A stretch of DNA of 58,898 nucleotides from an uncultured bacterium (lineage in GTDB: Bacteria > Verrucomicrobiota > Verrucomicrobiia > Verrucomicrobiales > DEV007): contig CAXBMO010000032.1 of NCBI GenBank assembly GCA_963977015.1, positions 1-58,898 on the forward strand, written 5' to 3'. The notes below the pieces were generated by a model. The model did not search any database. It was not told the origin of the DNA and was given only the letters and a program-made list of their open reading frames with translations. Every line of letters starts with the position of its first letter. The first letter of the stretch is position 1. Positions 1-23,327 of this stretch are shown here, piece by piece. Made by a program: the position numbers and the translations under genes.

Positions 1-93
1 AAACAGTCCAGCCAGAAACAGTCCAGCCAGAAACAGTCCAGCCAGAAACAGTCCAGCCAGAAACAGTCCAACCAGAAACAGTCCAACCAGAAA
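1..93. repeat. 15-bp tandem repeat (AAACAGTCCARCCAG x6, runs off the window start)
   Basis: Four copies of aaacagtccagccag, then two of aaacagtccaaccag, head-to-tail with no spacers. Confidence 0.95.
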
Positions 94-869: not shown

Positions 870-2303
870 TTAAAGTTCCATCGCTTCGATTTGATGGAGA
901 AGCGCGCTCTTGTCCTTTTCGAGGAACATGAGCGTTTCCATCGTCTTATCCGAAAAGCCTGCGAGCGCGTAAACGCCGCGTTCCGGAAATTGAAGCGATC
1001 CGTAACCAGCCAGATCAAAGCTGTAGACACGAGGACGGTTTCCCGCCTTCTTGACATAAGCTTCGAAGCTTTCGGTTGGCGTATAATATCCCATCCAGCC
1101 CTGCATATCAGAGAGGATAACGACGCGATCGTAAGCCTTCCGAGCCGTTTGGAAGATCGCGTGGAAGTTGGTTCCGGCGAACCGGGCCTTTTCTTCCATG
1201 CGTTGCGCCAGACTCAAGGTGCTATCATCACGGTTGAAGGTCTTGAACTCGGCGATATCGCTGAAGAGCATGAGATCCGCATCGTTGGTCTTGTAAAGGA
1301 CCGATGCAAAGAGCGATCCGATCTTGATCGGATTTCCATGCATGGATCCGGAACTATCCAGCGCGATCAACGTACGACCTTCGAGCACCGGAACATTCTC
1401 CAATGCAAGATCGACAGCCTTACTGAGCGCACGAATCACCTTTTGGCGATTTGGCAAATCAGTCGCCTGTTCCACGGCATCCAGAGCGGTGCGGAAGCGG
1501 AACGGCAGCACGAGCGACTTGCGGATCAACCGCGGATCCTGCAGCAACGCAAGCGCGTCATCGACGACGTCCGGAGACTGTTCGAGGATGTTGCGCAGGT
1601 TGCGAAGCAGCGCGAAGTATCCGATCTTGCGACTACGAATGAGGTCCGCCCAGGCTCCCGCCTTACGACCAGCCTTGTCTTCGGCATTCTCCGCTTGTTG
1701 ACCAGCCTGCGTCAGCTTGGTTTCCCAGGTTTCCGCCGGCTGAAGCGTTCCCGCCATCAACTGCCCCAAAGCTTGGGTGTGCGGAGGGTGAAGCAGGTTC
1801 ACCGCATCCACCAGCTTGAGTTCAGCACCTTCGCGCCGGTACTTGGCCAGTTGGTAGGCATCGAACCGGGTCAGGGCTTGGCCCAATCCCTTCTTGAGAG
1901 AGTTTGGCAAGGGCTTTCCATGGACCGCCATGTGGTAGGCCAGGATTTCGAGAACGTCATCAACGCGGTAGACCACGCGATCGAAGAAGCGACGCGTCCA
2001 ATCGGCACCCTTGACCTGGTGCGCCAGTTCCCCGGCGACCAAGTGGCTGACCGAACGCATCCCTGCTTCACGACGAGCATAAAGCGCCGCCTTCGCGACA
2101 AAAGGCTTGTCGTTGATCTCGCGGATCAGTTCCTGGAGCCGCTTTGCGGAATCACCCGCCTTGCGGTAGTACTGGTTTTCCAGGAAACAGGTGAGGAGCA
2201 TGGTCACCAGTTCGAGCTTGGCGCTCTGGGTGAAGGCCTCGCCACCTGCCAGGTTGATGGTTGTCGATTCTGTTTGCTTTTGTCTTTTCAGATTGAACTT
2301 CAT
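870..2303 (-). CDS. rsr: TROVE-domain Ro60 ortholog with C-terminal vWA domain (Rsr-like)
   Basis: INLAGGEAF, FDAYQLAKY, TWETKLT and ALLRNLRN TROVE motifs; MIDAS DSSGS; GTNF; ILSDMQ. AGGAGG SD lies about 11 nt upstream and Y-RNA-like genes are adjacent. Confidence 0.93.
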   Translation of the reverse strand: MKFNLKRQKQTESTTINLAGGEAFTQSAKLELVTMLLTCFLENQYYRKAGDSAKRLQELIREINDKPFVAKAALYARREAGMRSVSHLVAGELAHQVKGADWTRRFFDRVVYRVDDVLEILAYHMAVHGKPLPNSLKKGLGQALTRFDAYQLAKYRREGAELKLVDAVNLLHPPHTQALGQLMAGTLQPAETWETKLTQAGQQAENAEDKAGRKAGAWADLIRSRKIGYFALLRNLRNILEQSPDVVDDALALLQDPRLIRKSLVLPFRFRTALDAVEQATDLPNRQKVIRALSKAVDLALENVPVLEGRTLIALDSSGSMHGNPIKIGSLFASVLYKTNDADLMLFSDIAEFKTFNRDDSTLSLAQRMEEKARFAGTNFHAIFQTARKAYDRVVILSDMQGWMGYYTPTESFEAYVKKAGNRPRVYSFDLAGYGSLQFPERGVYALAGFSDKTMETLMFLEKDKSALLHQIEAMEL

Positions 2304-2780: not shown

Positions 2781-2797
2781 TTTTAAAAAAGGCTGAG

Positions 2798-2868
2798 CAT
2801 CCGAGCATGGATTCGAACCATGATTCTCGCCTTCAAAGGGCGATGTCCTTCCGTTAGACGACTCGGAT
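2798..2868 (-). tRNA. tRNA-Gln(TTG)
   Basis: Acceptor ATCCGAG/CTCGGAT; anticodon arm TCGCC-CTTTGAA-GGCGA; T-loop TTCGAAT; no encoded CCA. Confidence 0.9.
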
Positions 2869-2881
2869 GAAAGAAGAAAAA

Positions 2882-2955
2882 TCGGTCTGGAAGGACTTGC
2901 ACCCTCAACCTGCCGGGTAAGAACCGGATGCTCTCCTAACTTGAGCTACAGACCG
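2882..2955 (-). tRNA. tRNA-Lys(CTT)
   Basis: Acceptor CGGTCTG/CAGACCG; anticodon loop TTCTTAC; T-loop TGCAAGT. Confidence 0.85.
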
Positions 2956-2960
2956 TTGTC

Positions 2961-3011
2961 GTAGCCACGATTGGTAATCGTGGTATGAATTCGAGTGCCA
3001 CTCGAATCTAC
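2961..3011. repeat. GTAG-bounded double-hairpin (REP doublet-like) element, copy 1
   Basis: GTAG-CCACGATT-GGT-AATCGTGG ... ATTCGAGT-GCC-ACTCGAAT-CTAC; second copy at 3748-3799. Confidence 0.8.
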
Positions 3012-3016
3012 AAAGG

Positions 3017-3109
3017 CGGAGCTTTGAGGACTTGCACCCCATGCCTCGTTTTCGCGAGGCACCATTCGTTTAGCAAACGACTCCGACACGCTTGTTCGGT
3101 TAAAACTCC
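3017..3109 (-). tRNA. tRNA-Ser(GCT)
   Basis: Acceptor GGAGTTT/AAGCTCC, G73; loop TTGCTAA; long variable arm TGCCTCG/CGAGGCA; T-loop TGCAAGT. Confidence 0.85.
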
Positions 3110-3124
3110 AATCGAAATACCAAG

Positions 3125-3197
3125 TGCCCGTAGCAGGATTTGCACCTGCACTGAACCGCTTTTGAGTCGGCTGCCTCTGCTGTTGGGCTATACGGGC
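3125..3197 (-). tRNA. tRNA-Leu(CAA), short variable loop
   Basis: Acceptor GCCCGTA/TACGGGC, A73; loop CTCAAAA; 5-nt variable loop; T-loop TGCAAAT. Confidence 0.85.
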
Positions 3198-3214
3198 GTT
3201 TCGTTGCAAAGAAG

Positions 3215-3287
3215 TGCTCACGGAAGGATTCGCACCTTCAACTCCTCGGTTTTAAGTCGAGTGCCTCTGCTCTTGGGCCACGTGAGC
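3215..3287 (-). tRNA. tRNA-Leu(TAA), short variable loop
   Basis: Acceptor GCTCACG/CGTGAGC; loop CTTAAAA; T-loop TGCGAAT. Confidence 0.85.
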
Positions 3288-3298
3288 CTGCTCATTCG

Positions 3299-3374
3299 TC
3301 GACCCGGTGGGAATCGCACCCACGTCCTCTCGCTTATAAGGCGAGCGCTCTCACTGCGCCTGAGCTACGGGTCA
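3299..3374 (-). tRNA. tRNA-Ile(TAT)
   Basis: Acceptor TGACCCG/CGGGTCG; arm CTCGC-CTTATAA-GCGAG; T-loop TGCGATT. Confidence 0.85.
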
Positions 3375-3387
3375 AAAGGTAGAACGG

Positions 3388-3460
3388 TACCCACGACAGG
3401 ATTTGCACCTGCAACCTTCCGCTTCTAAAACGGACGCCTCTGCTATTGGGCTACGTGGGC
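3388..3460 (-). tRNA. tRNA-Leu(TAG), short variable loop
   Basis: Acceptor GCCCACG/CGTGGGT; arm TCCGT-TTTAGAA-GCGGA; T-loop TGCAAAT. Confidence 0.85.
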
Positions 3461-3480
3461 CAATGTCAATTTGATGAACG

Positions 3481-3554
3481 TTCCACCGGTCGGTGTCGCA
3501 CCGACATGGTCTCCTTTACGAGAGGAGTGCATTGCTGACTTCTGCCACGGTGGA
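3481..3554 (-). tRNA. tRNA-Thr(CGT)
   Basis: Acceptor TCCACCG/CGGTGGA; arm CTCCT-CTCGTAA-AGGAG; T-loop TGCGACA. Confidence 0.85.
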
Positions 3555-3571
3555 TAAATGGAGTTTGTAGG

Positions 3572-3644
3572 CACTCCCGGTAGGACTCGAACCTACAACC
3601 TGATGCTTCGAAGGCACCCGCTCTTCCAATTGAGCTACAGGAGC
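3572..3644 (-). tRNA. tRNA-Arg(TCG)
   Basis: Acceptor GCTCCTG/CGGGAGT; arm GGTGC-CTTCGAA-GCATC; canonical D-loop GG and T-loop TTCGAGT. Confidence 0.92.
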
Positions 3645-3662
3645 GAAAAGAAATCTAATCAA

Positions 3663-3747
3663 TACGGGATGGAGGATTCGAACCCCTCGACAGCCAACCC
3701 ACAGTTTATGGTCGACACGTTAGAAGCATGTGGTGGGAACATCCCGC
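3663..3747 (-). tRNA. D-armless tRNA-like RNA, anticodon TCT (Arg)
   Basis: 8-bp acceptor GCGGGATG/CATCCCGT; no D-arm; arm ACATG-CTTCTAA-CGTGT; expanded variable region; 4-bp T-stem with TTCGAAT loop. Confidence 0.7.
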
Positions 3748-3799
3748 GTAGCCACGACTGGTAGTCGTGGTTTGAAATTCGAGTCCCACTCGAATCTAC
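3748..3799. repeat. GTAG-bounded double-hairpin (REP doublet-like) element, copy 2
   Basis: GTAG-CCACGACT-GGT-AGTCGTGG ... ATTCGAGT-CCC-ACTCGAAT-CTAC; compensatory T:A to C:G change relative to copy 1. Confidence 0.8.
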
Positions 3800-3810
3800 G
3801 ACTAAAAAAA

Positions 3811-3881
3811 TAGGGGCTGAAGGTAACGCTCCCTCGTCTCCTGTGTGTAAAACAGGCGTCCTACTATTGAACGAAGCCCCC
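3811..3881 (-). tRNA. tRNA-Val(TAC)
   Basis: Acceptor GGGGGCT/AGCCCCT; arm CCTGT-TTTACAC-ACAGG; T-loop AGCGTTA. Confidence 0.85.
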
Positions 3882-3904
3882 ATCACTATGATCATGTGAG
3901 GAAG

Positions 3905-3978
3905 TATCCCGGGAGGGATTTGCACCCCCAACCTCTGCGCACTCAACACAGCGCCTCTGCTGATTGGGCTACCGGGAC
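3905..3978 (-). tRNA. tRNA-Leu(GAG), short variable loop
   Basis: Acceptor GTCCCGG/CCGGGAT; arm CTGTG-TTGAGTG-CGCAG; T-loop TGCAAAT. Confidence 0.83.
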
Positions 3979-3980
3979 AT

Positions 3981-4052
3981 TGGGGCCAACGGCGAGTCTC
4001 TCACTCGCATCTTCCGACTTACAAGGTCGGCGCACTTCTCTGCCACGCTGGC
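3981..4052 (-). tRNA. tRNA-Thr(TGT), CCA encoded
   Basis: Acceptor GCCAGCG/CGTTGGC-C-CCA; arm CCGAC-CTTGTAA-GTCGG; T-loop TGAGAGA; small D-arm. Confidence 0.82.
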
Positions 4053-4069
4053 GTCTCAAAAGAAAGCGG

Positions 4070-4141
4070 TGCGCCGTGCCGGTGCTGCCCCGGCTCCTCC
4101 TGTTTGGAAGACAGACGTCCTAGCTGGTAGACGAACAGCGC
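4070..4141 (-). tRNA. tRNA-Gly(TCC)
   Basis: Acceptor GCGCTGT/ACGGCGC; arm TCTGT-CTTCCAA-ACAGG; T-loop GGCAGCA. Confidence 0.83.
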
Positions 4142-4155
4142 TTCAAGGTGAAAGA

Positions 4156-4229
4156 ATGCCCGTGCGGGAATCGCACCCGCCACACTCTGGGTTGCAACCA
4201 GGCCGGTTCACTAGCTCCGGTCACGGGCG
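4156..4229 (-). tRNA. tRNA-Cys(GCA)
   Basis: GCCCGT/ACGGGC acceptor with U73; loop TTGCAAC; T-loop TGCGATT. Confidence 0.8.
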
Positions 4230-4243
4230 TCTTCCGAGAAAGG

Positions 4244-4316
4244 GTTGATCGACGGGATTTGCACCCGCACCGCAACCTTCACAGGGTCGAATGCTAACAT
4301 TTACACTACGATCAAC
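4244..4316 (-). tRNA. tRNA-His(GTG)
   Basis: G-1:C73 present; acceptor TTGATCG/CGATCAA; arm CGACC-CTGTGAA-GGTTG; T-loop TGCAAAT. Confidence 0.87.
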
Positions 4317-4345
4317 ATCTCTGGATTCAATACCACTACCAAGAG

Positions 4346-4416
4346 TCCCCCCGGTGGGTAACGCTCCCACTTCTGCGGTTTAAAAGACCGCTGCATCACT
4401 TTAATGCTTCGAGGGA
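4346..4416 (-). tRNA. tRNA-Lys(TTT)
   Basis: Acceptor TCCCTCG/CGGGGGG; arm GCGGT-CTTTTAA-ACCGC; T-loop AGCGTTA. Confidence 0.85.
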
Positions 4417-4436
4417 AGAAGTGATGGATTTCTACC

Positions 4437-4507
4437 TATCCCCGCCAGGATTTGCACCTGATCCGACGCCTTCGCACGACGCCATGCTTCTCTTACACTA
4501 CAGGGAC
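4437..4507 (-). tRNA. tRNA-Arg(GCG)
   Basis: Acceptor GTCCCTG/CGGGGAT; arm GCGTC-GTGCGAA-GGCGT; T-loop TGCAAAT. Confidence 0.8.
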
Positions 4508-4530
4508 AACTCCATTCGCTACCGCCAAAA

Positions 4531-4601
4531 CGCCTCATGCCGGTTACGCTCCGACTCAACCTGTTCGACAGACAGGCAGGCTACTATTACATCAATGAGG
4601 C
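4531..4601 (-). tRNA. tRNA-Asp(GTC)
   Basis: Acceptor GCCTCAT/ATGAGGC, G73; arm CCTGT-CTGTCGA-ACAGG; T-loop AGCGTAA. Confidence 0.83.
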
Positions 4602-4613
4602 TTGTTGAAGAAG

Positions 4614-4685
4614 TGGCTGGCTCCGGAATTGCACCGGGCTCTCGTCGCCTTCAACGACACGCTAATCTGTCTCAGCTATCCAGCC
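4614..4685 (-). tRNA. tRNA-Phe(GAA)
   Basis: GGCTGG/CCAGCC acceptor; arm TGTCG-TTGAAGG-CGACG; T-loop TGCAATT. Confidence 0.8.
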
Positions 4686-4700
4686 TTTGAATTCCCGAAA

Positions 4701-4771
4701 TCGTCCTGGATGGTAACGCTCCACCGTCTACCGGTTATCAACCGGTTGCTCTGCTTTTGAGCTACAGGACG
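4701..4771 (-). tRNA. tRNA-Ile(GAT)
   Basis: Acceptor CGTCCTG/CAGGACG; arm ACCGG-TTGATAA-CCGGT; T-loop AGCGTTA. Confidence 0.87.
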
Positions 4772-4782
4772 CGAAAGAAAGG

Positions 4783-4854
4783 CACCTCCGCTTGGACTCG
4801 AACCAAGCTCGCGAGGCTTAACAGGCCTGCTGCACACCCGGTGCATTCGAAGGT
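4783..4854 (-). tRNA. tRNA-Asn(GTT)
   Basis: Acceptor ACCTTCG/CGGAGGT, G73; loop CTGTTAA; T-loop TTCGAGT. Confidence 0.85.
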
Positions 4855-4862
4855 CAAAGAAG

Positions 4863-4937
4863 ACTCGGGGGCGGGAATCGAACCCGCGTGAAAGGCGGCT
4901 TATGAGGCCCCTTCGAGACGCCAACGCTCTCCCCGAA
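4863..4937 (-). tRNA. tRNA with CAT anticodon (Met, atypical D-arm and anticodon stem)
   Basis: Acceptor TTCGGGG/CCCCGAG; loop CTCATAA; T-arm GCGGG-TTCGATT-CCCGC. Confidence 0.75.
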
Positions 4938-4962
4938 GAATGGAAATGTTCGAACCAAGATA

Positions 4963-5054
4963 CGGGCCACGGAGGTCCTGCCCCCCAAACGCAGGACTAC
5001 TGCGTTCAATCCGTTTTCAAGACGGTTCCGGCACGCTTGTCCGGTTCGGGACCC
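4963..5054 (-). tRNA. tRNA-Ser(TGA)
   Basis: Same unusual D region as Ser(GCT) (CCGGACAAGCGTGCCGG); loop CTTGAAA; long variable arm AACGCAG/CTGCGTT; T-loop GGCAGGA; G73. Confidence 0.78.
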
Positions 5055-5076
5055 ATGTCTCTTTGGTTGTGAAAGG

Positions 5077-5162
5077 TAGGTCCTGGTGGAATCGCACCAC
5101 GCGTCGACTTTCGGCTTCTTTTATGACAACGGTTTTACAGACCGCCAGCCGAGGCAGGACCT
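5077..5162 (-). tRNA. D-armless tRNA-like RNA, anticodon GTA (Tyr)
   Basis: 8-bp acceptor AGGTCCTG/CAGGACCT, A73; no D-arm; arm GCGGT-CTGTAAA-ACCGT; expanded variable region; 4-bp T-stem GTGG-TGCGATT-CCAC. Confidence 0.75.
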
Positions 5163-5175
5163 ATGTGAAAGAAAT

Positions 5176-5251
5176 TGGCAAGGCGTGGGGGAATTGAACC
5201 CGCCGTTCCCAGACTGAAAACCTGGTGTCCTAGCCATTAGACGAACGCCTC
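5176..5251 (-). tRNA. tRNA-Glu(TTC), CCA encoded
   Basis: Acceptor GAGGCGT/ACGCCTT-G-CCA; arm CCAGG-TTTTCAG-TCTGG; T-loop TTCAATT. Confidence 0.88.
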
Positions 5252-5268
5252 ATTTGGAAAAATGGAAA

Positions 5269-5336
5269 TGGGAGGTCCTGGTAACGCTCCAGGCATCCAG
5301 GGTTATGAGCCCCGGGGCAGAACTTTCTGACCTCCA
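5269..5336 (-). tRNA. Initiator-like tRNA-Met(CAT) with miniature D-arm
   Basis: 1:72 mismatch (T/C), GGAGGT/ACCTCC acceptor, three G-C pairs next to the CTCATAA loop, D-arm reduced to CAGA-AAGT-TCTG, T-loop AGCGTTA. Confidence 0.72.
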
Positions 5337-5350
5337 ATCTGCTGATTGCG

Positions 5351-5424
5351 TCGCGGTGGTAGGACTCGCACCTACTTCCTGAGACTTCCAAGGTCCCTAT
5401 CTCGACTACTTCGACCTCACCGCG
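5351..5424 (-). tRNA. tRNA-Pro(TGG)
   Basis: Acceptor CGCGGTG/CACCGCG, A73; arm GGGAC-CTTGGAA-GTCTC; T-loop TGCGAGT. Confidence 0.85.
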
Positions 5425-5434
5425 AAAACTGGTA

Positions 5435-5507
5435 TGGAGACACTCGGTAACGCTCCGAGTCCTGCTGCTTGCAAGGCAGCCGTGCTATCTTTTATCACTA
5501 TGCCCCC
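5435..5507 (-). tRNA. tRNA-Ala(TGC)
   Basis: Acceptor GGGGGCA/TGTCTCC with the G3:U70 identity pair; arm GCTGC-CTTGCAA-GCAGC; T-loop AGCGTTA. Confidence 0.88.
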
Positions 5508-5513
5508 AAAGAA

Positions 5514-5590
5514 TGGCAGACTGCGAGAGAATCGAACTCTCTAAGCGCAAGGTTTGGAATCTTGCCGCGACACCCACTCGCCGACAGTCT
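5514..5590 (-). tRNA. tRNA-Trp(CCA), CCA encoded
   Basis: Acceptor AGACTGT/GCAGTCT-G-CCA; loop TTCCAAA; T-arm GAGAG-TTCGATT-CTCTC. Confidence 0.82.
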
Positions 5591-5612
5591 GCATTGATAC
5601 TTCTTTCCACAA

Positions 5613-5797
5613 TTCTCTGAAGCATGAAGGGAACTTCCAAGCCTGACGATTCATCACGGATTCTTCACGCGTGAACCCATGTGATTTAGAAGCGGCATGC
5701 TGTTGAGCGCGCCGCCGTTTCAATATTTGGATTTGGGTTCCGGGAAGAGGAAGGATGGAATCGAACTGATGATCCGTTCTACCTTCGCTTCAGAGAA
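5613..5797 (-). ncRNA. Unassigned ~185-nt structured RNA (possibly a long Y-type RNA)
   Basis: Long closing helix TTCTCTGAAGC-GAAGG-TA-GAAC / GTTC-CCTTC-AT-GCTTCAGAGAA; internal helices GAACCCA/TGGGTTC and GCGGCGCGCT/AGCATGCCGC. Confidence 0.6.
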
Positions 5798-5800
5798 AGA

Positions 5801-5942
5801 CGAACACCGTTACCGATCGTTACTCGGTAGCCGCAGGTTTTCACAGACGGACGTTTCGGTGTCTAACAGGCACACCTCCCTTACATAGAAGCCTCTTGGG
5901 TTGCCATTCCCAAGAGACAAACACTTTCCGTAACACGATTCG
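5801..5942 (-). ncRNA. Unassigned ~140-nt structured RNA candidate
   Basis: Hairpin GTCTCTTGGG/CCCAAGAGGC (its G-U wobble works only on the minus strand), ACACCG/CGGTGT, TACCGA/TCGGTA; ends partly complementary. Confidence 0.4.
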
Positions 5943-6057
5943 AAAATGGTGTGATCCGGTTGACCAAGTTGAAGACTTGTATAAATTAGAAACTTGTAGG
6001 TGAGCTAATCTATCAGGCTTCCCCTTTCGGGAGAACTTGGTAAGGTTTGCCTCTCTG

Positions 6058-6112
6058 GCCTGTTCTTGAGGTTGGATCAGTTGCCGCTGACCGCCTCGGG
6101 AACGGGCTTTTT
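6058..6112 (+). terminator. Plus-strand hairpin plus T5 (possible terminator of an antisense transcript)
   Basis: GCCTGTTCTTGAGG/CCTCGGGAACGGGC, 14 bp with three G-U pairs that form only on the plus strand, followed by TTTTT. Confidence 0.45.
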
Positions 6113-6211
6113 AATGGCTATGTCTAATTGATTGATTGATTAATGAATTGGTTCGTCAGTTGATGAGATCAAAAATTCCTTTCTTGCTGATTTTAAGAGA
6201 GTTACAGGACA

Positions 6212-6245
6212 CAAAAAACCCTGCCTCGGGGATGAGAGCAGGGTT
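6212..6245 (-). terminator. Intrinsic terminator between leader ORF and RNA array (attenuator)
   Basis: Minus strand AACCCTGC-TCTCATCCCCGAG-GCAGGGTT-TTTTGT. Confidence 0.8.
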
Positions 6246-6292
6246 CACGTCAAAAAAACTGGGTAGTATTCTCGTTACGTAAACCGCCTCTC
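6234..6292 (-). promoter_or_regulatory. Candidate antiterminator helix
   Basis: GAGAG-GC-GGTTTACGT (6292-6277, last leader codons) pairs with ACGTGAACC-CTG-CTCTC (6250-6234, terminator 5' arm and loop). Confidence 0.65.
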
Positions 6293-6466
6293 TTTGGGTT
6301 CATCACCACTACGGTATCCCAGATGATTCTGGGCAAAAATGGCGACTGTCTCTCCTTTTGCATCCCACTTTGTCCGGGGCAAAATCCATCCCGCGATGAG
6401 ACACGATGTCTCCCGCTGAGGCAATGCTGCCTGCATTGGTATGGTTCTGTTGTTGGAGAATGACAT
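6275..6466 (-). CDS. Putative leader peptide (63 aa) of the tRNA/Y RNA/rsr operon
   Basis: ATG about 40 nt after the -10 box; the stop codon overlaps the antiterminator strand; terminator about 30 nt downstream. No obvious SD. Confidence 0.55.
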   Translation of the reverse strand: MSFSNNRTIPMQAALPQRETSCLIAGWILPRTKWDAKGETVAIFAQNHLGYRSGDEPKERRFT

Positions 6467-18742: not shown

Positions 18743-19022
18743 GGTCCGGATCCTCGGCCAACACATCCTACTCGGCCATCAAATTCACGGAACAGAACCT
18801 GACTTCGCAACCAGCGGTGGAGAGGTTTGGCATTCGCAGAGCCCCCGCCTGGCTGCGCAGCTTCAAGAACAGGCGATTCCGGAGATGGCCGCCAGGTTGG
18901 ACGTTCCCTCCAAAAGCCATCGTGCCAGCGCCACCAACTAATCACGAATTTGTCCTTGGACAACCAGCCTGATCCGATGCTTGAATTCCCTGACGGAACT
19001 ACTCCGTTTTGAGATCAATCTG

Positions 19023-22000
19023 ATGCAGGAGAATTGGACAGCAGAAAGTGGCTATATCGAAGCGCAGCGACGCATTCGGGCGGCCGCAGAATCGAACCAC
19101 ACCACCCTGGACCTTCATGATCTTCCTTTGGCCGATCTCCCTCCGGAACTAGGCCAATTAGGGGGATTGAAAGAACTCTTTCTGGGGAACCAGTTTCGAG
19201 ATCCCGAAACTGGTTACATTCTATTGGACCGCCCCCCACCCAACAAAAATATTGTAGATCTCTCGGCCCTGGCCGGCCTCAGCGCCCTGCAGCTCCTCGA
19301 TTTGGGCGGGTGCCGCCGGCTGAGCGATTTCTCGGGGCTGGCCGGCCTCAGCGCCCTGCAGCACCTCAATTTGAGCGGGTGCCGCCAGCTGAGCGACCTC
19401 TCGGTCCTGGCCGGCCTCGGCGCCCTGCGGCACCTCAATTTGGGCGGGTGCGACCGGCTGAGCGACCTCTCGGTCCTGGCCGGCCTCAGCGCCCTGCAGC
19501 ACCTCGATTTGGGCTGGTGCGACCAGCTGAGCGATCTCTCGGTCCTGGCCGGTCTCAGCGCCCTGCAGCACCTCGATTTGGGCTGGTGCGGCCAGCTGAG
19601 CGACCTCTCGGTCCTGGCCGGCCTCGGCGCCCTGCGGCACCTCAATTTGAGCGGGTGCCGCCAGCTGAGCGACCTCTCGGTCCTGGCCGGTCTCGGCGCC
19701 CTGCGGCACCTCTATTTGCGTAGTTGCGACCAGCTGAGCGATCTCTCGGCCCTGGCCGGTCTCAGCGCCCTGCAGCACCTCGATTTGGGCTGGTGCGGCC
19801 GGCTGAGCGATCTCTCGGCCCTGGCCGGCCTCAGCGCCCTGCAGCACCTCGACCTGTGGGGGACTAGCTCACCCACAATTTCCCGAGGGTTTCTTCAAGG
19901 TCTGAAAGACCGTTGTGACGGATTAAGTCATCTCATTATTCAACAGGCTGTTGAGATTCATCCGGCACTCCTGTCCAGAAGTGAAAGAGACAACTGTTTA
20001 GAGCGACTCTTTTCTGCACTCCGCGCGTTCGAGGATCCCCAGGCAAAGCCGGTGACGGATCAGGATGTCAAAGTGTTAGTTTTGGGAAATGGTGAAATTG
20101 GAAAGACCTGGTTTTGTCACCGATTGATGGGTCATGACCCGACCGCCCTGAAGTTGAAGTCCACCCACGGGATCCAGGTCTTGCGCGCGGGATTTCCCCA
20201 GGAGTTTATTGAGAGGCAGTTTCAGGATCAGACTGAGGCAAGCCCTACCAATTGGCTCAATCTATGGGATTTCGGGGGGCAGGATTTGTATCACGGAACC
20301 CACGCGTTGTTTCTCAATACACGCTCGGTGTTTTTGATGCTTTGGAAGGCCGGAGATGACGAGGAACAGGAGAGGATCGACTCTCTCGGTCATCCGGATC
20401 AGCGCCATACGCAACAGTATTGGGCCGACTACATCGAATCGCTCGCCCCGCGTGACAGCGCGGTGGTGGTCGCACAGAGTTTGTGGCGAGATGCGGAGAC
20501 GGGCGTGGACGATCGACCGGGCTCTTTGAACGCGGAGTTCCGGCATCTGAAACCGATCGAAAGCTATTACAATGCCAGCACCGGTGAACATGGTAAGGTC
20601 CTGAAAGAGGACTTGGAAACGGCGATCGCGCAGATTCGGGGAACGACGGGTGATCTTCTCATTCCCGGTTCCTGGGCCAAGGTTCGAGATGAGATTCAGG
20701 CGTGGCAGCAGGAATGGGTGGAATCCGAAGAGGTTTCGTTTGCGGAGCGCAAACGTCAGACGATTCCCTGGGATGAAGGTGAGGATTCGTTCGTGAAACT
20801 TTGCCAGTCCGCTGGAGATGTGGGCGATCCCAAGGTGCTGCTACAGTTTCTCCACGACACCGGGGTCCTGTTTCACAAAGAGGGAGCGTTTCAGAATCAA
20901 ATTGTTCTCGATCAGGAATTCGTGCTCAAGGCGATCTATGAGGTCCTCGACCGTGAAAATGTTCTCGAGTCCATCAAGCGCACCGGGCGTTTTACGATGG
21001 CAGAACTGTGGCAGAAAACGCCCTATTCCGAAGGTGATCAGGCATTGTTTCTTTCCTTGATGCAAGAATGTGGAATCTGTTTTGAGTTCCGCAAAGGTCC
21101 ACAGGGTGAGTCCGTCTATGTCGCGCCGGACCTCCTGCCGGATCGAAACGGCATCGATGATCCGGACCACCGCGACCGAGCCTCACTCGATGCGTGGAAC
21201 GCGATCCCAACACCGGAAACAGTCTATCGGCTGGACTTCGATTTCTGGCATCAGGCAATGGCGCGATCCTTCTTCAGCGAAGTTGGACGGGCGGCCGGGG
21301 ACCGGGCGACGTATTGGAAAAACGGGGTCTACTTTGAGGTACGGGAACATGGAGAAGAAGCGGTATGCCGGATCACCAAGGAACCGAGCCGGGCGGGAAC
21401 GGTGAATTGCGGATGCCTGACGATTCGCGTGAAAGGAGAGACTGCCGGTTCCATTCCGCTTCTGGCAAAAATGATTGCGGTGGTTCACAAAATCCAGACC
21501 GGAGTTCCACCTCGCGAGACTTTGGAGCGCGACGGCTGTCTTGTGAAGGTGAACTACGCTGACGAAAGCAAAGTGGACCAAAAGCGCCTCACATTGGATG
21601 AGGTTCATGCGGAAGAAGGCGGCGAAGAAAAGGTCGTGGCTTACGATCCGAATGACCCGGACCAATCCGAGCTGAAACCCGCAGCACCATTTCAAGAGAT
21701 TCTGCGATTCTTGGGAGATCGGGATCCAAGGCGAGCGATGAAGCAGGAAATGATGGAGGCCATCGCCGACAAGGATGACGCTTCGGAAGAACCGGAAAGC
21801 GGTCTTGAAAAGCTCGGGTTCATGCAAATCAAGGATTCGCTGCAAATGAAGCGAGGGCATGATGGGAGATTTGCGACGAGCGATGAATCGTCGGAGGTAT
21901 TGCCGAATCCCAGTGATCTCGTGCCTGTGACGACTACGCACGCCTCGGAATATGAGTACGACGTTTTCATCTCCCATAGCGATCGCGATCTGGAAGCCGC

Positions 22001-23327
22001 CAAATCCTTGACCGAGTTTTTGAGAGAGAAGGGCCTCACCGTGTGGCTCTTCGAAACCGCGATGAAGCCAGCGGATCCATGGAAGAATTGGGACACGGCA
22101 ATGGAGTTGAGCCAGAATCTCGTAATTCTTTTGGGTGGTCATTCAACCGGCCAAGAGCGGGAACTGGAATACTTCGAGAATCGGCAGAGGTCGGAGGGAG
22201 AGGAAACTTGCCGCATTCTTCCAGTATTGCTTCCTGGTGCTCGCGATCACGTTTTGTTCCCCCGATTTTTGGATCGTTGGATGTGGATTGAGGCGAAACA
22301 GGAATTCGGCGTTCGGGAGATGAAGTTGATCGCTAGCGTGTTTACCCGAGCTGAACCGGTGCTCGGCAAACGTCCAAAGCGCCGATGGATACCAGCCGTG
22401 CTTGTGCTCGGTTTAACCGGCGTAGTGGCTAGCGCTGGATGGCATTGGCGCGATTCGATTCAGGATTGGTCGGACAAGATCGGGGGCCGAGGAATCGTCG
22501 TCACAGAAATAGGCAGCGACGGCCAATCGCCACCCGCTGATTCACCAAGGGAAATTCCATCCATCGACAAACTCTACCAAGGGAGCCATGCCCTTATTAT
22601 CGGCAACGATACCTATCAACACTGGTCGAACCTGCCTTCGATCGTGGAAGAGACCAAGGAGGTGCAAGAGGCTTTGAAGAAGCAGGGGTTTACCATCTTC
22701 AAGGGTGGAGTTCAAAGGAACCTGACGGAGGACGAACTGCGCAGAACCTACGAAGACTTCATCGATGATCACGGGTTGGCTGACAAAAACCGATTGGTGC
22801 TCTATTTTGCGGGTCACGGTTTTACGCGCAAGAACGGAGACATTGGCTACATCGTGCCGGTTGACGCTCCCAACCCAAACGATGATGAAACCGGGTTTAC
22901 GCGAAAAGCGGTCGAAATGGATGCGGTCCGAACGTGGATGCGGAAGATCGAATCCCATCACGCACTCTTTCTTTTCGATTCCTGTTTTTCGGGCACGGCT
23001 TTCCTAACTCGCAGTCTAACCAATGAGGAATTGCCATCAGATATTGCGGCATTGGCTGAACTACCGGTCCGGCAGTTCATGACATCCGGCAGCGCGGACG
23101 AAGAAGTACCAGCTCGCTCCGTGTTTACCCAAGCCTTTGTCGATGCCATGACCAGACCCGTGGCGGATTTGGATGACAACGGCTATGTGATTGGCGCGGA
23201 ACTGGCGATTTACCTCCGCAAGGAAGTCGCAAAGTTCACTCCGATGGGAAACCGGGTTCAATACGGTGTCATCCGAGACCGAGCCCTCAGCCAGGGAGAC
23301 ATCGTTTTTGAAGTTTTGAGGGATTAA
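19023..23327 (+). CDS. Roco-family protein: LRR - Roc GTPase - COR - TIR - TM - caspase-like peptidase C14
   Basis: 23-aa LRRs; P-loop GNGEIGKT, STHGI, WDFGGQD; COR (LQFLHDTG); TIR YDVFISHS...RELEY; TM WIPAVLVLGLTGVVASAGW; C14 ALIIGN, FAGHG, DSCFSG. The start may be the TTG at 18981. Confidence 0.88.
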   Translation: MQENWTAESGYIEAQRRIRAAAESNHTTLDLHDLPLADLPPELGQLGGLKELFLGNQFRDPETGYILLDRPPPNKNIVDLSALAGLSALQLLDLGGCRRLSDFSGLAGLSALQHLNLSGCRQLSDLSVLAGLGALRHLNLGGCDRLSDLSVLAGLSALQHLDLGWCDQLSDLSVLAGLSALQHLDLGWCGQLSDLSVLAGLGALRHLNLSGCRQLSDLSVLAGLGALRHLYLRSCDQLSDLSALAGLSALQHLDLGWCGRLSDLSALAGLSALQHLDLWGTSSPTISRGFLQGLKDRCDGLSHLIIQQAVEIHPALLSRSERDNCLERLFSALRAFEDPQAKPVTDQDVKVLVLGNGEIGKTWFCHRLMGHDPTALKLKSTHGIQVLRAGFPQEFIERQFQDQTEASPTNWLNLWDFGGQDLYHGTHALFLNTRSVFLMLWKAGDDEEQERIDSLGHPDQRHTQQYWADYIESLAPRDSAVVVAQSLWRDAETGVDDRPGSLNAEFRHLKPIESYYNASTGEHGKVLKEDLETAIAQIRGTTGDLLIPGSWAKVRDEIQAWQQEWVESEEVSFAERKRQTIPWDEGEDSFVKLCQSAGDVGDPKVLLQFLHDTGVLFHKEGAFQNQIVLDQEFVLKAIYEVLDRENVLESIKRTGRFTMAELWQKTPYSEGDQALFLSLMQECGICFEFRKGPQGESVYVAPDLLPDRNGIDDPDHRDRASLDAWNAIPTPETVYRLDFDFWHQAMARSFFSEVGRAAGDRATYWKNGVYFEVREHGEEAVCRITKEPSRAGTVNCGCLTIRVKGETAGSIPLLAKMIAVVHKIQTGVPPRETLERDGCLVKVNYADESKVDQKRLTLDEVHAEEGGEEKVVAYDPNDPDQSELKPAAPFQEILRFLGDRDPRRAMKQEMMEAIADKDDASEEPESGLEKLGFMQIKDSLQMKRGHDGRFATSDESSEVLPNPSDLVPVTTTHASEYEYDVFISHSDRDLEAAKSLTEFLREKGLTVWLFETAMKPADPWKNWDTAMELSQNLVILLGGHSTGQERELEYFENRQRSEGEETCRILPVLLPGARDHVLFPRFLDRWMWIEAKQEFGVREMKLIASVFTRAEPVLGKRPKRRWIPAVLVLGLTGVVASAGWHWRDSIQDWSDKIGGRGIVVTEIGSDGQSPPADSPREIPSIDKLYQGSHALIIGNDTYQHWSNLPSIVEETKEVQEALKKQGFTIFKGGVQRNLTEDELRRTYEDFIDDHGLADKNRLVLYFAGHGFTRKNGDIGYIVPVDAPNPNDDETGFTRKAVEMDAVRTWMRKIESHHALFLFDSCFSGTAFLTRSLTNEELPSDIAALAELPVRQFMTSGSADEEVPARSVFTQAFVDAMTRPVADLDDNGYVIGAELAIYLRKEVAKFTPMGNRVQYGVIRDRALSQGDIVFEVLRD
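19257..19856 (+). repeat. 69-bp tandem repeat encoding LRRs (8 full units plus 1 partial)
   Basis: Unit approximates DLSvLAGLsALqHLdLgwCdqLS, near-identical at DNA level. Confidence 0.95.

Follow-up and report, generated by a model that had tools for sequence, protein, structure and literature searches.

Can an RNA whose chain does not follow the cloverleaf path still serve as a tRNA? The window, by which we mean the whole 58,898-nt stretch analyzed here, from a contig of an uncultured Verrucomicrobiota bacterium, raises this question because its tRNA array holds two RNAs, Arg(UCU) and Tyr(GUA), for which a preliminary description had proposed a pseudoknot in which the D-stem is re-formed by the variable loop. 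Our findings suggest that both belong to an apparently new family of bacterial and phage tRNAs with a non-cloverleaf chain path, and no description of the rewired fold was found in the literature searched.

Two rewired RNAs in a verrucomicrobial tRNA array

Both RNAs lie on the minus strand at the positions first reported, and each has the 8-bp acceptor, 4-bp T-stem, normal anticodon arm, and strand of 8-9 nt originally ascribed to it. Read from 3747 to 3663, the Arg(UCU) RNA consists of an 8-bp acceptor, an 8-nt single strand, a 5-bp anticodon stem, a 4-bp variable stem around 19 nt, and a 4-bp T-stem; the Tyr(GUA) RNA matches this layout except for a 9-nt single strand. The complementarity reported between this strand and the variable loop (CCCAC/GUGGG in Arg, UCGGCU/AGCCGA in Tyr) is also present. 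The features are as follows, with all coordinates on the minus strand.

2797..5592, tRNA array of 30 units for 20 amino acids, holding both RNAs (anticodon-arm reading)
3663..3747, rewired 8/4 tRNA-Arg(UCU), 85 nt; discriminator A at 3663, CCA not encoded
3733..3737, Arg strand CCCAC, corresponding to the D-stem's 3' side and continuing into the anticodon stem (covariation)
3722..3724, Arg anticodon UCU (anticodon-arm reading)
3703..3714, 5' side of the Arg variable stem (3714-3711) and 8-nt linker with the conserved AAA (3707-3705)
3693..3702, Arg transplanted 5' D strand and D-loop residues (covariation)
3702-3698, Arg transplanted 5' D strand GUGGG
3697, Arg U pairing with T-loop A59 (3677)
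3695-3694, Arg equivalent of G18G19
3693, Arg position 20, a C in this copy
3672..3686, Arg T-stem of 4 bp with loop UUCGAAU (U55)
5077..5162, rewired 8/4 tRNA-Tyr(GUA), 86 nt; A1-U72, discriminator A73 at 5077, then CCU
5147..5152, Tyr equivalent of the 3' D strand, UCGGCU (covariation)
5136..5138, Tyr anticodon GUA (anticodon-arm reading)
5107..5116, Tyr transplanted 5' D strand and D-loop residues (covariation)
5116-5111, Tyr transplanted 5' D strand AGCCGA
5110, Tyr A opposite U59 (5091)
5109-5108, Tyr equivalent of A18G19, matching T-loop G55
5107, Tyr U20
5086..5100, Tyr T-stem of 4 bp with loop UGCGAUU (G55)

Neither RNA carries an encoded CCA, and both were missed by ARAGORN and Rfam; at the two sites the cloverleaf model RF00005 gave no match even at E 5. 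These RNAs are not cloverleaf tRNAs, as no D-arm hairpin stands between the acceptor and anticodon arms. In a sequencing run of uncertain kind, available as contigs only, pieces from a related sequence span 3388-3747 and 5070-5235, which speaks neither for nor against expression.

A family found in bacterial tRNA arrays and phages

Descriptor searches returned 247 hits, reduced to 232 sequences by dropping 15 misparsed Ser/Leu-type cloverleafs and chance hits, and to 229 distinct sequences by dropping three odd Arg RNAs. These come from bacterial tRNA arrays and phages and carry the anticodons UCU, CCU, UCG, and ACG for Arg, GUA for Tyr, UAU for Ile, and GCA for Cys; anticodon changes within the class with an 8-nt strand are all among Arg anticodons. 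Cultured carriers include Oceaniferula spumae NT6N and the phages Av-05, KARL-1, AhSzw-1, D260, and phiAB441. ARAGORN detected only two of the 171 members checked. The window Arg RNA is its genome's best match to model R1 (84.3 bits) and the Tyr RNA scores 91.5 bits with model R2, each being part of the respective seed.

Because several of the search patterns prescribed the variable stem, AAA, and RG, and one (seven loci) prescribed the helix strand and GG, these motifs look more conserved than they are; the couplings between them and free positions are not inflated in this way. A later set of 35 new hits left 12 sequences after the removal of 23 in which the acceptor or anticodon arm was not intact; many of these 23 presumably resemble the 3' ends of tmRNA. 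Tyr queries against annotated phages and plasmids returned no family member, nor was the family found in a phylum-wide sample of 150 other genomes, in which only 29 candidates were scored per genome.

Members have the 5-bp anticodon stem, 7-nt loop, T-loop, discriminator, and CCA of functional tRNAs, with U33 and purine 37 in anticodon arms whose form was partly required by the descriptor. CCA is encoded in 196 of 232 sequences (Arg 127/152, Tyr 62/73, others 7/7).

Covariation of the helix formed with the variable loop

The single strand between the acceptor and anticodon arms measures 7-9 nt in all 229 members, and its helix with the variable loop covaries as strongly as ordinary stems do. 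Of the 232 sequences, 97% can form a helix of 5 bp or more; exchanging strands between sequences lowers this share to 38% (maximum 45%), and shuffling the loop lowers it to 21%. The homologs keep the complementarity, with all five core pairs in 213 of 229 members and four of five in the other 16, and the helix recurs in 12/12 of the later set, fetched with patterns that left it free. Two-sided changes occur in all five Arg and all six Tyr/Ile pairs, 94-95% of cells being paired. For instance, Arg pair D6:L10 (G=165) changed on both sides on 23 branches, and D5:L11 reached G=106. Judged against a null that takes the tree into account, these two Arg pairs are significant, as are D7:L10, D5:L12, and D8:L9 in Tyr (E 0.000-0.013). 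None of 500 shuffles matched the observed covariation, and slid controls likewise supported the helix.

Similarly, pair 7a:65 forms in 50-54 of 54 sequences with two-sided changes, whereas 49:65 is mostly A-C or C-C, which rejects a 7/5 acceptor/T branch and leaves a 12-bp branch in the 8/4 arrangement. Together, homolog covariation demonstrates the helices at the level of sequence and supports the proposed pseudoknot, in which the variable loop restores the D-stem; we consider the D strand/variable-loop rewiring, taken as a fold alone, very probable.

A D-loop and a probable elbow supplied from the variable loop

The preliminary description had called these RNAs D-armless. The usual place indeed holds no D-arm hairpin, but the label fails in that the variable loop carries both the D strand and D-loop positions 16, 18, 19, and 20; the RNAs are therefore not D-armless and, unlike in mitochondrial D-armless tRNAs, the D-loop/T-loop elbow seems to form anew. 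Covariation links T-loop base 59 to the base that follows the helix: the Arg pair L14:T59, which had not been predicted beforehand, is paired in 52 of 54 sequences with 17 two-sided changes (E=0.007). In Tyr/Ile members the equivalent of 16:59 includes C-C and U-U, and C16:C59 and U16:U59 are described for tRNA-Sec (PMC7609411).

Base 55 likewise follows the transplanted RG, which documents an 18:55 elbow coupling in the alignment: among 229 members we counted GG/U 166 times, AG/G 60 times, GG/G never, AG/U once (a register error), and other combinations twice. The switch is seen in both Arg and Tyr, with eight changes each and nine jointly, on a weak tree built with these bases masked. Cloverleafs of the same arrays keep the rule as well (AG/G55 387, GG/U55 113, GG/G55 45, and AG/U55 1, of 561). 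Positions 19 and 56 are both invariant, and the 19:56 contact therefore shows no covariation signal.

The shared CATAAA motif first noted at the start of the loop is off by one base in register between the two RNAs, the C of the Tyr copy being the last stem base, but its AAA is conserved at loop positions 4-6 (227/229, partly imposed by the search patterns).

Identity elements

The main ArgRS determinant is A20 (PMC9976931). An A after RG occurs in 142 of 149 Arg members versus 2 of 80 non-Arg members, the pattern that would be expected of this determinant, and at the same position in 50 of 56 cloverleaf Arg tRNAs of these arrays; among the later Tyr members, 4 of 12 have A20. Discriminator A is found in 73/73 Tyr and 6/6 Ile members, the single Cys member having U, whereas 75 of 152 Arg members carry U, against the A/G of the E. 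coli rule. A1-U72 rather than G1-C72 occurs in 20 of 73 Tyr members, including the window's. Across the family, A20, A73, and U73 thus track the amino acid implied by the anticodon, with C20 in the window Arg, A1-U72 in the window Tyr, and U73 in half of the Arg members to be set beside this trend. The uncoupling of Ser/Ala identity from the anticodon that marks allo-tRNAs (G73/U73, long paired V-arm) is absent, and identity bases follow the anticodon.

Proposed chain path

In the model, the chain would run from the 8-bp acceptor strand through a 2-nt linker into the usual 3' strand of the D-stem and the anticodon arm. It would then pass through a variable stem of 3-4 bp and across the AAA linker to the 5' D strand (for a helix of 5 bp in Arg and of 6 bp in Tyr/Ile/Cys), deliver D-loop residues 16, 18, 19, and 20, close the variable stem, and enter the T-arm, the two crossing helices making a pseudoknot. 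With both helices folded simultaneously, the outer shape would be an L like that of tRNA-Sec or allo-tRNAs, with elbow contacts 16:59, 18:55, and 19:56 and position 20 exposed. The RNAs would be processed, charged by the host's own synthetases, and read by EF-Tu and the ribosome, and may be induced by stress. They would serve this genome as spare copies in a stress-type tRNA array and supply phages with readers of AGA, UAY, or AUA.

Array context and slot replacement

Reading the anticodon arms of the 30 units bears out the earlier observation that the Tyr RNA is the array's only Tyr and the UCU RNA its only AGR reader; both fill the last slots of the 20-amino-acid set. Other units of this array also lack an encoded CCA. 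The genome has 41 further tRNA genes outside the array, which is thus additional to the housekeeping set, and because ordinary Tyr-GUA and Arg-UCU genes exist elsewhere in the genome, the window copies are redundant.

None of 31 cellular arrays has both a rewired and a cloverleaf form of one anticodon: the Tyr slot is rewired only in 18, cloverleaf only in 6, and empty in 7, and the Arg-UCU slot is rewired only in 19, cloverleaf only in 6, and empty in 6. These counts are kin-structured, and many of the loci were chosen because they contain a member. At L031 and L171 the rewired gene has UCG or ACG and the adjoining cloverleaf has UCU. A same-anticodon cloverleaf is present in 3 of 171 loci, all viral or metagenomic (L051, L193, L254).

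This replacement of same-anticodon cloverleafs, which the array counts document, and the completion of the window's full decoding set argue against the leading alternative, namely that RNAs of the same fold are non-decoding tRNA mimics acting as decoys or sponges for tRNA nucleases, synthetases, or RNA-repair proteins, in a Y-RNA-like role beside Ro60/TROVE. Elements that fit such a role do come after the array:

870..2303, minus strand, TROVE/Ro60-like gene downstream of the array (Pfam PF05731, E 6e-21)
about 2384-2780, Y-RNA-like repeats preceding the TROVE gene (YrlA 39.6 bits, under the gathering score of 69)

A TROVE gene, however, adjoins only 9 of 146 member loci and is context rather than a dedicated partner. 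The two RNAs are not Y RNAs, the sole YrlA (RF02553) match lying off them at 2524-2589. Clustering of 960 ORFs from 146 loci, with 28 representatives scanned, revealed no dedicated synthetase or elongation factor and no recurring partner gene; recurrent neighbors among those representatives were HNH and GIY-YIG nucleases, TROVE, and Band 7. A conserved RNA upstream has no Rfam name. A synthetase decoy would keep identity bases too, hosts have ordinary copies, and Mukai et al. (PMC5389517) describe irregular 8/4 tRNAs that are charged yet unused in translation; the normal anticodon arms nevertheless speak for decoding. We regard mimicry as unlikely, and use of the family as working tRNAs, fold and translation together, as quite probable on these comparative grounds.

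Coexistence of the crossing helices

The variable stem, initially given as 4 bp, is better taken as a 3-bp core, since its outermost pair is unreliable (unpaired in 18/54 and 11/33), and in some phage copies it is shorter still. This shortness (2-4 bp), the frequent failure of the outer pair, and a family-wide mean pairing probability of 0.10 (0.41 for the helix, in ViennaRNA, which models neither pseudoknots nor tertiary contacts) would suit a scheme in which the helices do not coexist, the variable stem acting only in folding or processing, or the AAA linker being cut to give a nested or two-piece mature tRNA. We consider this very unlikely, given that the middle pair covaries strongly (G=141, joint in 9 of 9-10 changes), the G-C pairs are nearly invariant, and linker length and stem shrink together. 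Single-sequence folding in itself speaks neither for nor against the pseudoknot model.

Least probable is that the family functions while the window copies, above all Arg(UCU), are weakly active or decaying, as the Tyr A1-U72, the C20 found in 5 of 149 Arg members, and a competing nested fold of the Arg copy might suggest (5.2 kcal/mol below the model's nested part, the proposed helices having about zero pairing probability under the same program), since all stems are intact, same-genus orthologs retain both genes with helix-preserving changes and C20 as well, and encoded CCA is absent from other array units too.

Comparison with known systems

Permuted and split tRNA genes alter gene order and yield a cloverleaf as the mature product, viral tRNA-like structures mimic tRNA with a pseudoknot that builds the acceptor arm, and tmRNA and Y RNAs are comparable cases of altered gene order or tRNA mimicry.

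The closest relatives are the 8/4 allo-tRNAs and the 8/4 tRNA-Ser/His of phages and bacteria, described by Mukai et al. (PMC5389517), which share the 8-bp acceptor and 4-bp T-stem, a long D-stem whose loop is short, and a long variable region. Allo-tRNAs, as described there, keep a D-arm hairpin between the acceptor and anticodon arms, whereas the family lacks a local tetraloop hairpin and makes the helix with the variable loop; "Pseudoknot" and "Tyr" are absent from the supplement, and D-arm loss is not described in the text as available. The phage KVP40 8/4 tRNA-Tyr (annotated "tRNA-Pseudo-2") and an 8/4 Ser(UGA) of the Anabaena array share the family's T-arm G-R-G-G/C-C-U-C and score higher with model R1 than any other non-member (26-27 bits), but retain the D-arm hairpin. 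The family may descend from 8/4 cloverleaf tRNAs.

Like the Tyr/Ile/Cys class, tRNA-Sec has a 6-bp D-stem, a 4-nt D-loop, and a 16:59 contact (PMC7609411), and the Av-05 copy matches Rfam tRNA-Sec weakly (29.6 bits, cut-off 47); unlike the family, tRNA-Sec has a 13-bp acceptor branch, cloverleaf order, and dedicated SelA/SelB. Mitochondrial D-armless tRNA-Ser and the designed mini HisT (PMC11551756) also have a short single strand between the acceptor and anticodon stems, but they lose the D-T elbow and are modeled as Y-shaped, whereas the family takes the D strand and 18/19/20 from the variable loop; with its strand paired and elbow couplings present, it is not of the mitochondrial type.

The window resembles the L-array/trn operon tRNAs (PMC8421152), which in Verrucomicrobia and Planctomycetes are spare tRNAs gathered in long arrays that have spread horizontally and lie near HNH genes, as its 30 units are co-oriented on one strand and exceed the housekeeping set. 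The Anabaena operon Tyr and Arg-UCU are cloverleafs, unlike the window's; the accessible part of that paper makes no mention of the rewired form and shows induction by translational stress for Anabaena only. The Arg/Tyr tRNAs of T4, T5, and Anabaena are not members, nor are T4 rnaC/rnaD and T5 RNA1-3/I/III/IV/2H, the T4 and T5 RNAs having other folds and at most 14 bits with model R1.

Implications

It is known that 8/4 tRNAs work in E. coli (PMC5389517), as does a designed D-armless tRNA (PMC11551756). Our findings point to a probable natural tRNA class, shared by bacteria and phages, that would decode without a cloverleaf, in which the 5' D strand, D-loop, elbow contacts, and A20 are delivered from the variable loop via a pseudoknot, covering at least four amino acids, interchangeable with array cloverleafs, and unannotated in cultured phages. 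Speculatively, the rewired body may be kept because it escapes enzymes that recognize, modify, or destroy ordinary tRNAs.

If this is true, synthetases and the ribosome would read the shape of a tRNA and not its chain order, and a natural, widespread tRNA of another topology would make it possible to test directly which tRNA-binding enzymes depend on the cloverleaf path. Standard annotation would have overlooked a gene class in phages, and the fold would offer a new scaffold for the design of suppressor or orthogonal tRNAs. With cultured carriers at hand, these rewired tRNAs are testable at once.

Array and genomic setting

Contig C32, whose initial 58.9 kb form the window, belongs to a 6.9-Mb genome, and the sulfatase and planctomycete-type cytochrome genes found here (Pfam) are typical for Verrucomicrobiota. 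Reading all anticodon arms gave 30 units for 20 amino acids in the tRNA array, of which ARAGORN called 18 and Rfam 17. Both missed the Arg-UCU and Tyr-GUA RNAs, and no Rfam match covered either site, even at E 5. With these two RNAs the array could presumably read all sense codons under the usual wobble rules; ordinary Tyr-GUA and Arg-UCU genes are also present in the genome.

Features of the window
1-90: contig end, 15-nt tandem repeats (six)
192-644: IS200-like transposase
2384-2780, minus: several Y-RNA-like, tRNA-like repeats between array and TROVE gene, kept in related arrays; YrlA match of 39.6 bits, under the cut-off
2797-5592, minus: tRNA array, followed by the repeats and TROVE gene
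3663-3747, minus: Arg-UCU RNA
3748-3805 and 2956-3012, minus: double-hairpin spacer of ~55 nt, one copy immediately upstream of the Arg-UCU RNA; both absent from a related contig
5077-5162, minus: Tyr-GUA RNA
5600-6330, minus: conserved leader upstream of the array, containing a structured RNA of ~100 nt (5790-5900)
6466-6275, minus: 63-aa ORF, then a hairpin and U-run (6270-6200)
6535-6506 (approximate): TTGACA-17-TAAGGT site ahead of the ORF, seen by eye and absent from the scan's list
18981-23327, plus: 1448-aa protein with LRR, Roc-COR, TIR and caspase-like domains, likely an immune-type signalling protein

Many related arrays contain the 5790-5900 RNA at 80-92% identity; it shows two-sided changes at 6 of 27 predicted pairs (10 sequences), has no Rfam name and perhaps belongs to a larger noncoding RNA linked to the array. 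The ORF with its hairpin and U-run looks like a translation-sensing attenuator before the array.

Pairing between the D strand and the variable loop

In the preliminary description, both RNAs were D-armless 8/4 forms (acceptor/T-stem bp) in which the single strand after the acceptor pairs with part of the variable loop, a pairing referred to here as the helix. This anatomy agrees with both sequences, apart from two corrections: the shared loop element is a common AAA at positions 4-6 and not the full CATAAA, and the 4-bp variable stem is present with an outer pair that is unreliable in homologues.

The helix itself held up in homologues, with at least 5 bp in 97% of 232 sequences versus 38% when strands were swapped among sequences. 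When 101 Arg and 54 Tyr sequences are aligned without gaps, the varying helix pairs score within the range of acceptor and anticodon pairs and covary beyond a tree-simulated null, which the conserved C-G pairs vary too little to pass alone. Reduced sets gave two-sided changes in 5/5 and 6/6 helix pairs, a score unapproached by 500 shuffles or any slid register. All five pairs also form in 12/12 further members (three met before, yet outside earlier counts), retrieved with patterns that left the helix free. Judged by sequence comparison, the helix is real.

A transplanted D-loop

The single strand leads into the anticodon stem, like the 3' D strand of a cloverleaf. After its partner strand come one or two bases, then RG (the equivalent of D-loop 18/19), then one or two more. 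An unpredicted pair links the first base past the helix to T-loop base 59, with covariation at E=0.007 and 52/54 paired. Its combinations in Tyr and Ile are A-U, C-G, U-U or C-C, comparable to the 16:59 contact of tRNA-Sec (PMC7609411). RG is linked to base 55: GG with U in 166 members, AG with G in 60, one cross (register) and two others. This switch occurs in Arg as well as Tyr members; a weak tree gives 8 changes for each site and 9 for the two jointly, which may safely be read as at least two independent events; the window's two RNAs represent one type each. Finally, the base following RG is A in 142/149 Arg versus 2/80 other members (4/12 of the later Tyr set) and occupies the place of A20, an ArgRS determinant (PMC9976931).

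Because of these three couplings, the moved bases can be identified as D-loop positions; the Tyr/Ile/Cys class thus carries the 6-bp stem and residues 16, 18, 19 and 20 of a tRNA-Sec-type D-arm, here supplied by the variable loop.

Cloverleaf tRNAs in the same arrays follow the identical RG/55 rule, and A18 with G55 replaces G18 with U55 in most of them (387/561 cloverleafs of related arrays). Array Leu tRNAs have short variable arms.

Distribution of the family

Related arrays occur in 30 of 41 genomes, and 20 such regions were retrieved; more loci were added by scanning viral, genome and metagenome collections for patterns and by running blastn against annotated phages. Pattern matches in named genomes were nearly all in Verrucomicrobiota. 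A family descriptor requiring no variable stem, pseudoknot or anticodon returned 247 distinct matches at 415 loci. Anticodons retained 232, and dropping three odd Arg RNAs left 229: Arg 149 (mostly UCU; also CCU, UCG and ACG), Tyr 73, Ile-UAU 6 and Cys 1. Covariance models matched 40/134 genomes in the window's family, 0/150 others sampled phylum-wide, 4/42 within the family to which a Leptospiraceae carrier belongs and 9/150 within a Phycisphaerae carrier's phylum, these nine comprising seven full members, one truncated copy and one ordinary tRNA. The Arg query matched 373 annotated phage records, mostly near-identical Vibrio phages, 305 across more than 80% of its length; in 6/6 records inspected the gene was present without tRNA annotation.

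Three phage Arg-UCU RNAs (L048:5280-5358, L328:1246-1324, L384:1492-1571) lack the D-arm, look 7/5 and lie outside the family register, possibly representing a second non-cloverleaf type. Irregular members (L430, L432, L431 [L143:1610-1700], L162:5599-5684, L028:5354-5456) show insertions after the anticodon loop, an odd anticodon arm, T-arm decay together with a CCA anticodon, or a duplicated internal segment.

Origin, function and class

Outside the family, the closest RNAs are 8/4 cloverleafs that share its T-arm, including a Tyr gene of phage KVP40 with an intact 6-bp D-stem and an AGG loop. That gene (L197:5944-6029) bears the annotation tRNA-Pseudo-2; it is an 8/4 tRNA-Tyr(GUA), intact and with its CCA encoded. 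On the simplest reading, the family would descend from an 8/4 cloverleaf gene by moving the 5' D strand and loop; no intermediate was found between that form and the rewired one.

Against function stand C20 and a lower-energy alternative fold in the window's Arg copy, U73 in half of Arg members, A1-U72 in a quarter of Tyr members, and the charged yet non-decoding irregular tRNAs on record (PMC5389517). In favour, the discriminator agrees with the anticodon, being A throughout Tyr and Ile and U in Cys, and 196/232 encode CCA. Rewired and cloverleaf genes of one anticodon never occur together in 31 distinct cellular arrays, where chance predicts about 3.5 cases each by simple proportion, the arrays being related by kinship and partly selected. 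Two arrays pair a rewired gene of another Arg anticodon with an adjacent UCU cloverleaf, and both forms are present in 3/171 loci (viral or metagenomic). No recurrent partner protein lies near members, which implies that host enzymes would have to handle the rewired RNAs; 8/4 tRNAs (PMC5389517) and a designed D-armless tRNA (PMC11551756) function in E. coli.

The listings from full-text searches, with subscription journals, other supplements and candidate RNA motif lists outside their coverage, showed no description of the rewired form, nor did the supplement of Mukai et al. yield one when searched by terms, and no family in Rfam 15 covers it. The array may, by analogy with the Anabaena operon (PMC8421152), be inducible by translational stress. 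Our findings suggest that rewired RNAs work like tRNAs. They fall outside the cloverleaf, allo-tRNA and mitochondrial D-armless types, and a new structural class of tRNA would suit them best.
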